A stretch of 63,915 bases of DNA, the filler included, from Folioceros fuciformis (taxonomy: Eukaryota), in assembly GCA_049999805.1 (NCBI GenBank). It is 12 parts of 12 records of this genome, joined end to end, with 100 filler letters (N's around TTAATTAATTAA, not from the genome) between each part and the next. Parts side by side here need not be neighbours in the genome. Positions count along the whole stretch, not along the records: positions 24,299 to 30,391 come from JBNGIO010002237.1; 11 more parts are not named here. One strand, written 5' to 3'. The notes beneath the pieces were generated by a model. The model had not been told where the DNA came from and did no database searches. It worked only from the letters and a program-made list of their open reading frames with translations. Positions 27,005 through 63,290 of the stretch are shown piece after piece (position 1 is the first letter of the stretch; each line of letters starts with the position of its first letter). A program made the translations under genes and the position numbers.

Positions 27005-27080
27005 AGTTAGAAATAATAGCAAACCACATTGGTCTTGTACCAATATGGTTAAGAAGCTAGACCTAGCAATTAGTATAGGG
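27005..27080 (+). repeat. Partial copy of the AG...CT copia LTR
   Basis: Starts AGTTAGAAATA and aligns with 27260-27335. Confidence 0.8.
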
Positions 27081-27259
27081 GTATTTTTTATTATTGAAAA
27101 AGAGATGAAAAGTCCCATCTACTCCAAAGATTGGAGAAACAACTTGAGTAGGGCTAAAGGCCAAAAGGGGTACTAGCCCTTCGAACATCATTCTCAAAAA
27201 CTAGTCAAGAGCATAATGACTTGGGATCCTACAATTATAACAACACCTCACTGGTACTC

Positions 27260-27462
27260 AGTTAGAAATAAAAGCAGACCACGTTGGTTCTGTACCAATA
27301 TGGTTAGTCAGCAAGACCTAGCAGTTAGTATAGGTAGTTAGCTAGGCTAGCAAAAGGACACACCCCTTACAAGACCACCTATAAAAGCCCACCTATGAAC
27401 ACACTTAATTCATTGTTAATATAGCATCTTTGCTTAAGAAGCTTCTGCATGCAATTCTAACT
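27260..27462 (+). repeat. Copia 5' LTR with AGTTAGAA...TTCTAACT termini
   Basis: 8-bp terminal inverted repeat, TATAAAA inside, directly followed by a PBS; homologous to 31957-32163. Confidence 0.92.
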
Positions 27463-27474
27463 TGGTATTAGAGC
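27463..27474 (+). promoter_or_regulatory. Primer binding site (tRNA-iMet)
   Basis: TGGTATTAGAGC abutting the LTR end. Confidence 0.9.
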
Positions 27475-27884
27475 CTCGACTCCTACCATGGTCTCTAGGT
27501 TCAATGGCCAGACTTTATACGTATCATTACCTAGGTGAGCCATGGACGTTTGAAGCTCCATGTGCTTGCTTATGGTTAGAAGAAAGTGATACGTTGTTTT
27601 GGATAGCATATTGGTTCTATCTCACTACAAAAAAGGAGCTATGATGAGGTCTTCATCGTCGCTTCCATGCGATTTAATAGACGAGCTTTCTCAAGCCCCG
27701 TAATGAATTTAGTTTGTCTATATTTATATAACTTAAATTTATTGTCTTCTATTTTTATACAAGTTTAGGAATAGGGCAGTTGCACCCTCAGGCGAATCGT
27801 TATCCAACTTAAGTTAGATAACGGGCGCCCCCGAACGGGTGCCACCAGTTCAACGGAATGGGGCAACCAAGGGTACGGAACGGG

Positions 27885-27905
27885 TTTAGGGTTTAGGGTT
27901 TAGGG
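27885..27905 (+). repeat. (TTTAGGG)3 plant telomere-type motif
   Basis: Three exact tandem copies. Confidence 0.85.
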
Positions 27906-30391
27906 TTCAAACCCTGAAACGTTTCGTTTCAACCCTAAACGAAACGGCACACCCGTTCTGCGAACGGGTGTCACCCCTGTTATGTCGAACGGGGCCCCTA
28001 ATACTTTTTCTTATGCTCCTGATAATTGTTTTTCAGGCTCTTTTCCACCAGAAACTAGTGACGATTTTGGTGGCAATCCTCCTCAACTCCGACAGTTTTT
28101 GGCTATGCAATGTGTGCCTCCTACACACTATTTCAACACTGGGACATTGTTAATACCTGCCACCGTAACTGTTAAGGAGGAACCAAGATCATCCTCCCCT
28201 ACTTTCGAGACTTTGGAAGCTGCCTACAAGGAGTTCAAGTACAATGAGGACCAAGCCCAAGCTTCTACTCAAGAGCACGCTCTCTTCATTATCAAAACCT
28301 CTGGTAGTCGATCACACATATCAGCACTAATCTTGTGAATGTTGTTGAAACTGTTCGGCAAATTGAGACAAGCTTTGATAAGGCGAGTGTTTTGAAAAAC
28401 AATCTTGGAGCACAGGATTCAGCTGATGCATGGTAGGTGGCTGGTGTGAGTAAGATTGCTTTGAACTCCCCTAGAAAATTTTTTGCTCACACTACATTTG
28501 TGTTTTTCTGAGCCTTGTGTCACAATACGTTGCTCGTTCACACAATTGTGGAGCCAAGGATTTGACCATGTCAAGAGGCACTCCACCACCACCACCACCT
28601 CCGCCATCTCTGGCTCTTGTGATTAATGGTATGAACGTCTCTATTGACTTTAAAGAGAGAGATCGGTTCAACGAGACCAAATATGAGATTTGGTCTCGAC
28701 GCTCTCAATTTGCGCGATCTTCTCCCACTGGTGGAGGGTGTTTCCCCAAAGCCTACCGCACCTCAGTCAACGGTTGATGCTTGGCTCAAGCTGGATCGTC
28801 AAGCCATGCAAATGCTGGTTTCTTGCCTTGATGAAACCACCTTGCATCACACCGATGGTGCAACTACTTCAGCAGAGGCCTGGAAGCAGATCAATGACAT
28901 CTATCAGTCAACGAATGTGATGACTTTGGTCACCGTTCGACAAGAGTTCTACACTCTTCGGATGCAACAAGGTGATAGTGTTGCCCATCACGTGAGCCGA
29001 TTCAAGTATCTTCGGGCACAATTGGCTGCATTGGGGACTACAATGTCTGAATTTGATGCTGCTGTCCAGCTGCTAGCTAGCCTTCCGGCTAGTTATCAGT
29101 CGTTCGTCTCTTCCCAAAACCAGTTGGTCCAAATTTCATAACAAGCAGTGGCGACTGGTGGACAATCCACGCTAACTATGTCCTAGCTTGCTAGCGCGCT
29201 CCTTCAGGAGGAGGCATTTCGCTTCAACTCTAGCACATCTAAACATGGTGGAGAGCGAGTGATGTTTGTGGCTCGAGGACGGTCACAAAATCAACAACAG
29301 AAGAGAGGGACTAACCCCCGGAGAAACAACAACTCCCGCACATCAAAGGCTGCTCCTTCTGCCGCTTCCTCCTCCAAGCCTACAAAATGTCAAGGGACAT
29401 GCAATTGGTGTCAGTCACCCGGCCATTGGGAGCGGGAGTGCAGAAAGAAGCAAGCCGGTGAGGCCAAGCGTGAGATCAAGACAGCTAATACAGCTGTCTT
29501 TTCCAAGGCCAAGACCCAGTCCAAGTCTGAGATTGCTTTAACCGTGTGCCAAGCTCCTTGCCATGACTCAGCAGGACTTGTATCGAGATAAGTTGCCCTC
29601 CTTGGCCAAGACACCACCTCTTTGTGAAGCGTGTGTGCTTGCCAAGCAGCGGAGCTCTCCCTACTCAAGTCTTCCTGCTCATAGGGTTTCTCAGCCTTTG
29701 GAGTTAGTTCACGTAGACTTGTGTGGACCTCTCCCTGTTACTTCTTTAGGCGGAGCACGCCATTTTATGACGATAGTGGATGATTATTCCCGCTACTCTT
29801 TGGCGTACCCGCTTTGTCTCAAGAGTGACTCCTTTGCTGTGTTCTCACCTTTTGTTTCTACGGCCGAGTTGCACACTGGCTGCAAGCTACGGTGCATCAG
29901 ATCCGATAATGCGGGAGAACTCAACAACCATTAGTTCAAAGACTAATGTGAGGCGTGTGGGATCTTGAGACAATTCACTGTTCCCTACACTTCTGCTCAT
30001 AATGGCATTGCTAAGAAGGCCAATGGCGATTTTATGGCCATGGCGTGGGCTATGTTAGCCTAGCCTCGCTTGCCTAAGTCTTTTTGGGCTGAGGCAATCT
30101 CTACGGCAGCCTACATCAAGAATAGGTTACTGACCAAGTCCGTTGTTGGCCGTACTCCTTTCGAGTGTTGGCATGGGTACAAGCCTTTGATCACCCATTT
30201 GCACGTCTTTGGCTCTCCTGCTTATGCCTATGTCCCCTCCCAGCTTCGTGATAAGCTTTCTTCCCGAGCACGGAAGCTAGTGTTTGTGGGTTATAGTGAA
30301 GATCGCAAGGCGTACAAGTTGATGGACGTGGCTACTTGGACTCTTGTTTATGCTCGAACTGTCACTTTTGACGAGGCTAGTATTCTCTCTT

Positions 30392-30491
30392 NNNNNNNNN
30401 NNNNNNNNNNNNNNNNNNNNNNNNNNNNNNNNNNNTTAATTAATTAANNNNNNNNNNNNNNNNNNNNNNNNNNNNNNNNNNNNNNNNNNNN
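30392..30491. other. Artificial contig linker
   Basis: 44N-TTAATTAATTAA-44N. Confidence 0.99.
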
Positions 30492-32163
30492 ACATGGATC
30501 AACCTGAGGATTATCAGGATAAGAGATTCCCACAAAAGGTGTGTAAACTCCTTCGATCTATTTATGGGCTAAAACAAAGTCCTCGACTGTGGTACAAGAG
30601 AATTGACTCTTATCTTAAGAAGATTGGCTTCGTGCAAAGCGAAGCAGATACTAACTTGTATGTGCTCCAAAAGGACAACTCACTTATTTTAATAGCATTA
30701 TACGTGGATGACTTAGTTATCCCCGGTAATAATGTGGAGCTGGTTAACCAAATCAAGGCTGATCTCAGCAAAGAGTTTGAAATGAAAGATTTGGGTCAAG
30801 TTAAATACATTCTTGGGATGCACGTACACAAAGACAGGTCCTCTGGAGCTATCTACCTTCATCAAGGTCGATATGTAGCTGGGATGCTCAAGAGGTTCAA
30901 CTTGGAGAATGCACGAGCAGCTGTCACCCCAGGTGCTGTTGGAGTTAAGCTCTCCTCGTCGTCTTGTCCACAGTCTGACGAAGAGAAAAAGGAAATGGAG
31001 AGTGTGCCTTATCGTATGGCGGTCGGCTCCCTCATGTTTCTAAGCAATTGGACTAGACCAGACATATCTAATACTGTTAATGCAGTTGCGCAATTCTTTG
31101 AGAACCCAGGAAGGTATCACTGGGTAGCACTTAAAAGAATTATGCGGTACCTCAAGGGTACTCCTAACTATGGTCTCTGCTTCAAGCCCAGTGGCAAAGG
31201 AGTCTACAATTGACTTGCTATGTCGATGCAGATGGGCTTCCGATGCAGATACTCGAAAGAGTCTTTCGGCCTATTGCTTCCTTGCCGGCTCCACAGTTGT
31301 GAATTGGTCTTGTAGAAAACAAGCCTCTATATCTTTGTCCTCCACGGAATCGGAGTACAAAGCTCTCACAGAAGCTACAAAGGAGGCAGAGTGGGAAAGG
31401 AAGTGATGCGAAGACTTAGGTATGCAACAAGCTGGACCTACGATTATTAACTGTGATAATATGTCAGCCATCGCCCTAGTCTCCAACCCTGTGTTTCATG
31501 CCCGTACTAAGCACATCGAGATTCAACATCACTATGTTAGAGATGCTGCTGAGAGGGGCTTAGTGAAGATACAGTATGTGTCAACAGATGATAATACGGC
31601 TGATGTTTTGACAAAGTCTTTGCCCAAGTTTAAACACTGTTTCCACAGAGAAGGGCTAGGACTTTTAGATTGTAGTAGCTATGTGACGCTACACAAATCA
31701 CACATCTGGTGAGGCTTTCCGTGGTTGCTCCGTCGCCACCAAAGATAACTTAATTAGAGGACTCGCTTCCACTCTGGTCATGACTGGTGCTCAACTACGT
31801 GAGTTGTTGTCGACGACAGACTCAGCGTCAGCAAGTGCGACTAGAAGATGTGACAGTCGAGTTGAAGATGGTAGCCTTCCTGTGCTCGTTATTCTTAGTG
31901 GTGATCTCCGTTTCTTAGCTTGGAGCCCTCAGAACAGTAACGTGTCTGAGAGGGAGAGTTAGAAATATTAGCAGACCACGTTGGTTCTGTGCCAATATGG
32001 TTAGTCAGCTAGACCTAGCAATTAATATAGGTAGTTAGCTGAGGTAGTGAAAGGACACATCCCTTGAGGAGACCACCTATAAAAGCCCACCTATGAACAC
32101 ACTTGTTTAACTTTTGTTTATATAGCATCTTTGTTCAAGACGCTTCCGCATGCAATTCTAACT
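30492..32163 (+). mobile_element. Ty1/copia 3' half (RT, RNase H, PPT, 3' LTR)
   Basis: SIYGLKQSPRLW, LYVDDLVI, TRPDIS, RTKHIEIQHHYVR; PPT GAGAGGGAG at 31948-31956. Confidence 0.95.
31957..32163 (+). repeat. Copia 3' LTR with AGTTAGAA...TTCTAACT termini
   Basis: Follows the PPT; homologous to 27260-27462. Confidence 0.92.
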
Positions 32164-32227
32164 CATCTTCTAACGTGAGATCTGTGTTGTCATGCAGTTT
32201 GAAAACACAAGTGCCTTTGCCTTCTAT

Positions 32228-33397
32228 TTACAAGCTGGACTTACTCTGCTCATCACCTAGCAGCACCTTGTTATGGACATGCACAAGGTCTAGGGTGGAG
32301 AACAACTCCTTATCCTTACAGATGTGTGTTGTAGCTCCAGAGTCCAGATACCAGCAGCCATCATCGTGAAGAGAACTTGACAAGCAAACAGTAAGAATTT
32401 TTACTGGTGCCTTGTCAACATTCTGCTTCTCTTTTACAGCAACATTGGCATGTGGCTGCTTCTGTGGCTCACCTGCCTTGCATTTGCGGCACTCTCGTGC
32501 CCAGTGGCCAGGAGTTCCACACCAATTGCAGGTGCCGGAACGTTTGGTGGAAGAGCTGGCAGATTCAGAGCGACCAGAAGAGCTTCCACCTTGATTTCCC
32601 CCTCTGAACTTAGACTTGCCTTTAGGAGGTCTAAAATTCACAGCCAAGGCCTTCTCAGGTCGTGCTGCTTTAGAAACAACAAAGCCATGAAGCAGCCTTG
32701 CTTGCTCTTCCTGGTAGAGTGCTCCAATCACTTCCTCAACAGTGGGGGCGTTGGCAGCAACTACACCAGGTTTGATGGAGGCATTTTGGCTGGTAATGAA
32801 ATTTTTGTATGAAGGAGGGAGGCTAATGAGCAGCTGGGACACAGCCTCAACTTCAGGCATCTTGTTGCTAGTCAACGACGTGATCTGGGCTCTCAATTGC
32901 TGAAACTTGCTTGTGTGAGTTGCTATCTTTTCTCCTTCCTTCATTTTCAATGAGTAGAATTGCATCCTGACAGCTGATAGTGACATCATATTTGTGGAGT
33001 GGTAGGTAGTCTCCAATTGATCCCAAATTTCCTTGGGCGATGTCGAGAATTCAACATCAGGGACAAGGTCTGCAATTAAAGCATTGATGAGCAAAGCCAT
33101 GGCTACACTATTGTGGTACTCCCACTTAGCGTATTCATCTGGCTTTGATTTGGGGTCAAGCTTTTGAAAGCTCCCATCAACACTTGTCCACACACCTCTG
33201 ACAATAAGGACAGCCTTCATTCGGACTCTCCAGACCTGGTAACCGGTCCCACTGAAGCGGTCCTTTCCTTTGACATCTGATGTGAAAGATGTAGAAGGGG
33301 TAGCCATGATGGGTGGTTGGAGTGGAGGGTTTGCAGGTTGTAACGTAAGATTGTTTAAGTTATTAATGAGGGCGTTCAGGTGGGCTTCAACGGACAT
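32228..33397 (-). CDS. Copia Gag plus protease start (premature stop)
   Basis: 389-aa ORF: RFSGTGYQVWRVRMKA, CNWCGTPGHWAREC, WYLDSGATTHIC. Confidence 0.9.
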   Translation of the reverse strand: MSVEAHLNALINNLNNLTLQPANPPLQPPIMATPSTSFTSDVKGKDRFSGTGYQVWRVRMKAVLIVRGVWTSVDGSFQKLDPKSKPDEYAKWEYHNSVAMALLINALIADLVPDVEFSTSPKEIWDQLETTYHSTNMMSLSAVRMQFYSLKMKEGEKIATHTSKFQQLRAQITSLTSNKMPEVEAVSQLLISLPPSYKNFITSQNASIKPGVVAANAPTVEEVIGALYQEEQARLLHGFVVSKAARPEKALAVNFRPPKGKSKFRGGNQGGSSSGRSESASSSTKRSGTCNWCGTPGHWARECRKCKAGEPQKQPHANVAVKEKQNVDKAPVKILTVCLSSSLHDDGCWYLDSGATTHICKDKELFSTLDLVHVHNKVLLGDEQSKSSL

Positions 33398-33866
33398 GAA
33401 AAACTTGACGATTAAGAAGAACTATGGTTCTTCCTAATGCAGCTAAGTTCTCATTCATGCACTGCATTCAGATTTGTAGGAAACACTAACCAATTCATGC
33501 AGGAATGGAGTGCTGGGCTGCTCTACTGGAAATAAAGGTGCTAGCCAATATTGCTAGGATCAGGTCCTGCTGAGCTCCTCAACATGCTATTCGAGCATAC
33601 TTGTTGTGAAAGGTTGTGTCCATACCTGCAAACCCTAACTTGGATAACGGTTCATGAAAAGCCTTTAAAAATTAGGTTAAAAGCAAAAAACTAACCGTCA
33701 TGACCATCTGCTGAAGTGACAGGTACAAGTGGACCAATGTTTGCTGAAGAATGTTGTCTAATCAAAAGGTGCAGGGGAAGAATGCATCGATTCATATCAG
33801 GATGCAAGAGGAGCACTCTTGCACCTGCATGACCCCCGCTCTACAGCAGCGGAAGATTCACAATGC

Positions 33867-48743: not shown

Positions 48744-51047
48744 TTAGCACACGTTCACCTTCTTCCTAGCAAGGTCGGCACGGTACTTCAAAGGCACACC
48801 TTCTGCCTCCAACTCCTTCAACTTGCGTGCCTTGATTACTTCCAGTCGTTGTCTCTCAATCTCAAGCTTTGCACGAAGCCTGACGCCCTCTTCAACCCAC
48901 TCCTCGTGCTCGGCAATCTTCTTTTCTTTCTTCTTCCGAATCTGCTGCAGTATGTGGTCTTGATGCTCTTTTTCCATCTTCGCCAAAGCAAGTGCCTTAG
49001 CCTGGGCCTTAGCCACCTCCTCCTTCTGTGCTTGAATGATCCTATAGTATTCTTTCTCTTCTACCTTTGCTAGATCAGCTAGCTTCTTCACCTTCAACAT
49101 CTTCTGATTCTCTCTGGAATCCACCAAATCATCCATCATATTTTTCACTCTTTCTGCTTCTTTTCTCTCCTTCTCTCGCCAAGCCCTTTCCGTCTGCTCA
49201 TAAGCTCGTTGAGCCCGCAAAGCATCAAGTTCTATTTGCTTATCCTTTACTTTCTCTTGCATTTTTCTCAACCGAATCGTCTCCATTTCTCGTTCCTTTT
49301 TCACTCGCTCAACTTGGTCAAGATGAGCTTGCAACTTCTTATCCCTTTCAAGCACATATTGCTCAATTCGCCTCATCTCTTCTCGATCTCTCAGCACTTT
49401 CTGTTTCTTCTCCAAAATAGCTTCGTCGTTATCTTTCATAACTTGAGTTAATAGCTTTCTACCCTCTTCATGTTTATGTGCTGCTTTTGCATCATCTTCA
49501 GCTTTGAGTTGTTCAATATGCTGTACCAAGGCTTGACCTTCTAATATTTTTTCCTCTTGGTCATTTTTCTTTTTAGCAGCCCGTTCCTAATATTCAACAA
49601 GACAATATATTTTAACATGTAAAATTTTGATGTAGTAAAAATAAATCAGACTTAAATAAGATTAGCTTACGGCTATCTGCTTCAAAATCAGTTTAGCTCC
49701 TTCTCTTCGCTCTCGATCTTTCTGGGCTTCTATCGTTGCACGAATCTCATGCTTTCTGTTACTGTCAGCTTGCATCATAGCATCGAGCTCAAGTCTCTCT
49801 TGCTTATCGTCTTTGATGCGCTTAGCCTAAGTAATATCCATCTGCTTGAGTAATATTACCACCACAAAGGTGGTCATAAACTTTAATTACTTTAAATACT
49901 TGTCATAAACTACCTTTTCTTCCTTTTGTTTGTCCCTTATAGTTACACATCTTGAATATGTCATCATAGCATTCATCCTTTTCACATCATCTATAGCATC
50001 CTCCCACTCCTTCATTGCATTTGTCATTGTTCTACAGCAAATGGAATTACATCATCACTCTAATCTACCCACAAAAATAAATTATCATGCAAATAAGATT
50101 TTATCAAAAAAGAAAAAGAAAAGGTCGTACGCAGTATCAGCCTCCAGTTTAAGCTTTTCAGTGTAAGACATGTCTCCACTTTTAGCCTTCATCTCTTCTT
50201 CTAGCTACAAGTGCAATTACAACAAGATGAAATATTAGATTCGTTTGGAGTGTGTAATTATTTGAATTAGTTTCATATTAGTTGTCACAAAATTCAAATC
50301 TTACTTTCTGCATTTTTGCCTTTCTTGCATTTGCTATAGCATTGATTTGGGCCCTTTCTGCTTCCTTTTGCTCTTTGATCCGTTGGTGGTCTTCTGGAGT
50401 GAGAATCACACATGCTTCCTACAAAGGAAGATGGGTTTTGTTCAAAGATATAAGAAAGGGAGAATGACATTCAATCATGCACTATACATATGTTTGAAGG
50501 GGAAAAAAGAATAAAAAATCAACCTTAATTCGAGCAATATCACCAGTTGTTACAACAACAGTGTCTGTATCTTCCCTCTCTTCCTGGATGCTTCGTCTTC
50601 TTTGAGAAGGTCGTCTAGGCCAACCTTCACCCACTTTTAACATGCCCTATTGGACAAGGATAAACAAATGATGAACTGGTGGAAGACATTTTCAAGATCA
50701 ATCAATGAACACCTATAACATTTCCACAGACCGGTTTGATGGTTGTGTAATCAAATTTCGAGAACTCATTTGAGTCCTTCCTTTTCTTATCATTTTCAGG
50801 TTTGTTGCCAAAAAGTTTCTCATCAACTTCACTTTTCTTTGAGATCTACACAAAGTTCATGACCAACACCACAAACTTAACACACCCTTCACTAAGTGCA
50901 TCTTGCTCATTGGACTTGGTTAAGTAATGCTTGTAGTATTACTAGTTTATATCTTGCAATGCTCTTGGTATCTGTAGAAGCTCCACTTCGAGAGGATGTG
51001 TCTGTTTGTTTCTTAGCAGCAGGTTTCAGCTGGGTTGGAGCTCCCAT
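48744..51047 (-). CDS. CFAP45: Cilia- and flagella-associated protein 45 (CCDC19), 8 exons, 548 aa
   Basis: Exons 50943-51047, 50732-50845, 50524-50646, 50305-50418, 50131-50204, 49914-50031, 49671-49826, 48744-49586; all GT..AG and frame-consistent (1647 nt). Motifs SEVDEKLFG, DDVKRMNAMMTYSRCVTIRDKQ, ELDALRAQRAYEQTERAWR, KLKELEAEGVPLKY recognised from memory. Confidence 0.9.
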
Positions 51048-63085: not shown

Positions 63086-63290
63086 TGAAAACATTTGTGG
63101 ATCACGAGATGCGCCAAGCTAACACACAAAAAGCATACATTGATAATGATGGAAAGACACAAATAAGAGTAACCCGTAAAACGGTTACAACGGTTCAGAG
63201 CTGTTCTTAAATAACTAAACTAAATAACCTACTTGGTATAACGTAATGTACTGTATATGTTAAACCATAAAACTCTAACACTCCCACTCA
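63086..63290 (-). repeat. PPT plus 195-bp 3' LTR inserted in the copia RT
   Basis: Minus strand GAGTGGGAG|TGTTAG at 63280 ... TTTTCA at 63086, exactly where RT homology stops. Confidence 0.75.

Follow-up and report, generated by a model that had tools for sequence, protein, structure and literature searches.

The LTRs of retrotransposons end near-universally in TG...CA, and for the integrases of retroviruses and LTR retrotransposons the terminal CA counts as almost invariant. Plant genomes also contain other types. Of 50 plant genomes surveyed by Ou and Jiang, 42 contain non-TGCA elements; these are of seven types, with only the first T invariable (10.1101/137141). In lotus, non-TGCA elements account for 26% of Copia, and the eight Copia types given there (TGCT, TGGA, TGTA, TGGT, TACA, TACT, TATA and TGTT) all begin with T (PMC9804982). 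Yin and colleagues report two Ale-lineage subfamilies from Rosaceae, AACA and TGTT, the former with ends AA...CA; integrase divergence is raised by these authors for TGTT, and the AACA integrase is described as indistinguishable from the typical one (PMC5659011). Outside plants, Drosophila errantiviruses of the Zam clade have the termini AGTTA...TAACT/TAATT (PMC3601003, PMC5408687), and three of 26 families of diatom CoDi Copia are without TG/CA (PMC2806351). Two plant surveys hold the first LTR base to be always T, a rule from which the AG...CT clade described here departs. No plant Copia with AG...CT ends was found in the literature, of which coverage was partial, making this weak evidence of absence; nor was anything on such ends found in PMC12477816 and PMC10741241. 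The original prediction understated the precedent for non-TGCA ends and for A as a first base.

The window is the whole stretch of DNA analysed, 63,915 nucleotides of Folioceros fuciformis (GCA_049999805.1). Two direct LTRs, both running AGTTAGAA...TTCTAACT on the plus strand, are found in it: a 5' LTR at 27260..27462 (203 bp) and a 3' LTR at 31957..32163 (207 bp; 90.6% identity to the 5' LTR). A third, truncated copy of the same family (27005..27079, plus strand) also starts AGTTAGAA and matches the first 75 LTR bases at 87% identity. It is truncated by an unclassified high-copy repeat of about 125 bp (27081..27203, strand unassigned). Of 486 first-look genome candidates for this repeat, 40 were scored, and 39 of these are further matches with 83-90% identity. 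The PBS, of the initiator-Met tRNA type (TGGTATTAGAGC, 27463..27474, plus strand), adjoins the terminal T of the 5' LTR; it carries one C-to-T mismatch to the usual TGGTATCAGAGC, which is found in other copies. A tRNA-Met PBS is the common type among Copia (PMC6317226). At the other end, the PPT GAGAGGGAG (31948..31956, plus strand) adjoins the first A of the 3' LTR. Telomere-like TTTAGGG repeats and their complement lie at 27885-27940, in the 5' leader of the element.

The coding region is broken but recognizable, and all of it lies on the plus strand. A fragmented Copia gag with a CCHC-type knuckle occupies 28635..29588 (Pfam Retrotran_gag_2, E=9e-32). The protease, present in other copies, is deleted here: about 500 bp including it are missing near 29548, as seen from the break in the match to locus L047. 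A broken integrase core with an SH3-like domain follows at 29542..30384 (Pfam rve, SH3_retrovirus); its catalytic E is replaced by K, and it carries the K-A-N-G-D helix discussed below. An assembly gap of N (30392..30491) separates contigs C2237 and C2238, and the two halves belong to different subfamilies. Beyond the gap lie a broken RT and RNase H (30494..31664; Pfam RVT_2, E=4e-35, and tblastn). The 3' half is inserted into a host Copia gag-protease on the minus strand (32164..33421; Pfam Retrotran_gag_2, Pol_BBD), whose reading ends at the edge of the 3' LTR. Assignment to Ty1/copia rests on the domain order gag-PR-INT-RT-RH with an RVT_2-type RT (Pfam order, tblastn), on direct LTRs, a tRNA PBS and a PPT, and on a target site duplication (TSD) within 4-6 bp, the TSD being taken from copies outside the window. 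Re-reading bears out the original prediction in its LTR coordinates and ends, the third partial copy at 27005, the abutting PBS and PPT, and the host protease cut at the LTR edge from 32164. The canonical comparison GGGAG/TGTTAG (the slash marks the junction) is likewise present as described, on the minus strand with its T at 63280.

One part of the original prediction probably does not hold up, namely that the 5' and 3' LTRs bound a single element. Identity of the 5' half is higher to locus L032 (96.8%) than to L046 (89.4%), and for the 3' half the order is reversed (96.6% to L046, 89.4% to L032). Because the N gap joins two contigs and the halves match opposite loci, the two LTRs probably represent different insertions, the halves being of different copies and subfamilies. 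The window element has no TSD, its flanks TACTC and CATCT being different. The C2237/C2238 join is either an assembly join or a recombinant. With LTRs from different subfamilies, the window alone could not settle the boundary, the termini being unaffected; with mixed halves and no TSD, the terminal evidence rests on other copies. As a separate observation, the stretch 27777-30380 and L032 (96.8% identity) have the protease deletion, the catalytic E-to-K change and the PBS mismatch in common; either they are members of a defective subfamily propagated in trans, or one is a duplicate of the other.

Across the genome the AG...CT ends recur. A BLAST-type search with the LTR, made with no selection on first or last base, gave at least 42 matches (40 of 69 candidates were scored); three of these are the window's own copies, and a duplicated pair is also among them. 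Left ends are AG in 35 of 39 readable cases, the rest being AC, AA, GG and a truncated TT; right ends are CT in 34 of 35, with one AT. The original prediction had named a majority of copies ending TG...CA as evidence against it: no readable start is TG (0/39) and no readable end is CA (0/35). The LTR is therefore not of the canonical plant type, and with 35/39 starting AG it also departs from the first-nucleotide-T rule of the published non-TGCA types. In 87 Mb the pattern AGTTAGAA-N180-210-TTCTAACT has 47 matches, against none for the reversed control, and the PPT-AG junction GGGAGAGTTAGA occurs 76 times against 13 for its control; the termini are thus beyond chance. Canonical PPT-TG junctions in the same genome number 144 against 43 for the control. 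AAC-N-PBS junctions number 252; a hand count over the first 100 listed gives A in 75, T in 25 and C or G in none, some of the T cases belonging to TG-starting families.

Target site duplications place the A and the T inside the element. Nine paired elements, the window included, could be tested; most were found via an internal junction, so their outer ends are unselected. L135 (PBS after both LTRs), L115 (5' LTR truncated) and L118 (5' N) were left out of this count. With the boundaries at AG and CT, a 5-bp TSD is exact in 5/9 pairs (CCAAG, AAATG, AATGC, AAGAA and CTGGT) and within one mismatch in 6/9; the three pairs with no clean TSD are L031 (two mismatches), L032 and the window. A 6-bp TSD at the same boundaries is exact in 0/9, and shifted boundaries at 5 or 6 bp give 0-1 exact TSD among the nine pairs. 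In two of the nine the second base at the 5' end is altered and the A retained. A solo LTR (L268) also shows its duplication, GGAGT, just outside A and T. The first host base is evenly spread across 49 flanks (C13, T13, A12, G11); the A and the T thus do not come from a target motif. Matches between flanks on different contigs (five right flanks, about 0.7 expected) were not counted, since it is unproven that they pair, and two or more of them come from single elements that the count already includes. Two canonical controls from the same genome, L264 and L265, run TGTTAGAA...TTCTAACA with 5-bp TSDs (GTAGC and GCTCT); relative to these, only the outermost base pair is swapped, T to A on the left and A to T on the right.

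These termini belong to several families. From 71 PPT-anchored LTR starts, selected on AG, six multi-copy families and seven singletons are obtained, and the six AG-start families are mutually 52-68% alike. Membership does not follow from an AG start by itself: the singleton L060 is a member of a canonical family (74-84% to L259/L260) and carries its A sporadically. An RT-RNase H tree was built from 50 of 75 rows (25 near-duplicate or outside rows were dropped); in it, 16 AG-ended copies form one clade with L153 and L263 (support 100/100, stem 0.41). L153 has an AG 5' LTR. L263 was considered as a CA-ended clade member and rejected: although its coding region is that of the clade, both LTR and leader come from another family. 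The nearest relatives of the clade include the TG-starting or CA-ending L043, L152 and L262. Two side observations concern relatives of the clade: L152 has a 5' LTR TA...CT and a 3' LTR TG...CA, and in L164 both LTRs end CT, with no clear TSD. Outside the AG clade, L150 (G000:C6258) and L151 (G000:C6309) are TG...CT elements with perfect 5-bp TSDs (TGCCA and TTAAA), and a route to AG...CT through TG...CT is plausible. Because paired LTRs are 91.5-97.6% identical (two values from partial overlaps), their divergence indicates that insertions in the clade are apparently past, not current. No database protein is closer than 50% for the RT or 48% for the integrase. A multi-family, monophyletic Copia lineage with symmetric AG...CT ends is almost certainly real.

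Each of the described systems resembles this lineage in part. The non-TGCA plant Copia elements are likewise Copia with non-canonical ends and short LTRs (about 190-225 bp here, 272-316 bp there), and lotus TGCT has the same CT right end. Their first base is T, whereas here it is A and the two ends form a perfect inverted repeat; the lotus types are intermingled in their tree, whereas the AG...CT type forms one clade. The AACA subfamily of Ale is, like the present lineage, plant Copia with A as first base, but it is asymmetric, with CA at U5 and a 6-bp TSD (PMC5659011); in the present lineage CT is joined at both ends, with a TSD of 5 bp. The Zam clade has nearly the same five terminal bases. 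Its members are Ty3/gypsy elements (RT-RH-INT) with site-specific integration, while the present lineage has the Copia order and inserts at no fixed base, which makes its likeness to Zam ends convergent. The Osser, Bryco, Bianca and TAR lineages are characterized by a half-tRNA PBS or self-priming (PMC6317226), unlike the present lineage, whose PBS is of the 3'-end tRNA-Met type (TGGTATCAGAGC). Ty1, to which the integrase core has its best PDB match (E=3e-13), also has a PBS and PPT abutting the LTR, a blunt cDNA model and a 5-bp TSD (PMC8487063, PMC2939329), but it differs in its TG...CA ends and in its helix, E-R-L-N-R-T.

Further afield, viral contigs gave two pattern matches, neither near Copia genes. 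In metagenomes (88 matches), Copia pol lies directly upstream in 2 of 80 listed loci, L175 and L191. Both are distant: their pol, about 28-31% identical to plant Copia and on a distant branch of the RT-RNase H tree, stands directly before GAGAGGGAG followed by AGTTAGAA, the same 17-base PPT and LTR start. The likeness of L175 and L191 to the present lineage lies in the PPT and LTR start.

In retroviruses the alpha-4 helix after the catalytic glutamate contacts the viral DNA ends. The comparison of integrase residues proposed in the original prediction brings out three rare changes just after this glutamate: with the register fixed by alignment to Ty1 and PFV integrases, E-R-x-N-R-T has become E-K-A-N-G-D in the clade. 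Clade rows were defined by more than 60% identity to a clade integrase (29 distinct rows), and the outside set consists of 331 Copia proteins, of 385, with coverage of this stretch. K at E+1 is found in 29/29 clade rows versus 1/331 outside, G at E+4 in 27/29 versus 2/331, and D at E+5 in 27/29 versus 0/331. The K-A-N-G-D-type motif has 48 copies in 87 Mb and none in the control. Of 55 conserved integrase columns, ten lie in the active-site loop and helix; six of the 55 are replaced, four of them within these ten (hypergeometric p=0.008, for a set of columns chosen after seeing the data); in RT-RNase H the corresponding figure is 2/91. In PFV integrase Pro214-Gly218 stacks on adenine (PMC6784120), and the clade has S at the position of Pro214. 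The same P-to-S change occurs in 7/25 other rows from this genome, including a CA-ended relative, one of the seven being a short clade fragment (L061). PFV integrase, which has canonical CA ends, carries N-S-D at E+3 to E+5, close to the N-G-D of the clade.

The reading towards which we lean slightly is that the integrase may have co-adapted to the CT end through the changes in its active-site loop and alpha-4 helix. The lineage would have replicated for a long time with AG...CT termini. Its cDNA, by analogy with Ty1, would be blunt and need no 3' processing (PMC8487063, PMC2939329); RNase H would cut the plus-strand primer inside the purine run, at GGGAG/AG; and the integrase would join 3'-CT-OH instead of 3'-CA-OH ends on both strands. 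In the sequences themselves, the PBS directly follows the terminal T, the PPT directly precedes the terminal A, and insertion produces a 5-bp TSD without a fixed target base. Co-adaptation of loop and helix would account for the persistence of symmetric CT ends in families whose LTR bodies have diverged as far as 52-68% identity. We infer that the helix changes may cause the end switch, and the support for altered end recognition is correlative: a single clade amounts to one event, here on a long stem, and from such a correlation cause cannot be established. Of the original prediction, then, the lineage and its ends stand, and the altered recognition has this correlative support and a strong rival. 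A more tentative version, less likely than not, would make this an undescribed lineage of seed-free land plants whose integrase specificity switched from CA to CT through few alpha-4 substitutions. Doubtful to a like degree is the extension that such a switch converged on the AGTTA...TAACT ends of insect errantiviruses, and probably also on those of diatom-type Copia.

The strong rival, to which we give a substantial chance though one short of even, accepts the ends as real and combines tolerance with drift: Copia integrases would accept a terminal A:T either way, and the helix changes would be unrelated. With somewhat less than an even chance, too, the end changes would have come successively, for instance via TG...CT, and reverse transcription would have spread each of them to both LTRs. 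The integrase of Ty1 has been described as specific only for A:T ends, whichever the strand (PMC8487063, citing Moore 1995), although newer Ty1 assays with physiological metal give CA as the minimal requirement, CT apparently not being among the probes (PMC8487063). TG...CT is the commonest non-canonical type in lotus, with 6203 copies mixed with TGCA in the tree (PMC9804982), and L150 and L151 show that such elements with perfect TSDs exist outside the clade. L151 retains E-R-R-N-R-S and the AG-starting metagenome element L175 retains E-R-G-I-R-T without the clade helix motif; both keep canonical helix residues. L150 has K at E+1 and D at E+5 as in the clade, and L151 has neither. Against tolerance, the replacements are concentrated in the end-binding helix. 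Selection for the new ends is also suggested, since there is no reversion to TG or CA in the 39 and 35 readable ends (at least 42 matches) and the AG start is kept in six families only 52-68% alike.

A change in primer cutting and 3' processing, in which the integrase would shorten an initially longer cDNA instead of joining a blunt CT end, is very improbable. Retroviruses and Ty3 do process their ends (PMC8487063), and the PPT runs into the LTR as unbroken purines, so that the primer cut is invisible in the sequence; but the PBS adjoins the terminal T of 5' LTRs without a spacer, leaving nothing to trim at U5, and the final joined base would still be T. That the terminal A and T are target site, or mutated after insertion, has next to no probability and is refuted by the TSD boundary test, despite the one sporadic case of L060: the TSDs lie just outside A and T (the original prediction had named A and T lying outside the element as evidence against it), shifted boundaries fail, and dozens of copies agree on the A and T, which also stand at the internal PPT and PBS junctions.

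The clade spans several families, has T at both of its joined ends and canonical relatives within this genome, and carries three residues in the end-binding helix that are nearly diagnostic; it offers a direct test of what reads the terminal base. If co-adaptation of the integrase is true, it would be a natural specificity switch with candidate residues named, in elements of a class that libraries filtered for TG/CA lack. Prediction of REXdb elements required TG/CA (PMC6317226), so AG...CT elements would be left out, in agreement with the original prediction that TG..CA filters would omit the lineage; such pipelines and REXdb would omit at least 47 LTRs and 48 motif-bearing integrase copies in 87 Mb.

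At G000:C354:627-990 and C5171:7-273, LTR ends and PBS form tandem units, mostly with 33-base and 72-base spacing. In L135 (G000:C5991) and L017 (G000:C2883) the LTR has a PPT on its left and a PBS on its right, as in tandem or recombinant elements. Elsewhere in the window, an origin in a land plant with flagellated sperm, most likely one without seeds, is suggested by a CFAP45-like flagellar gene with a TPH domain (48747-49586, minus strand), whose best named relative is from Selaginella (45%).
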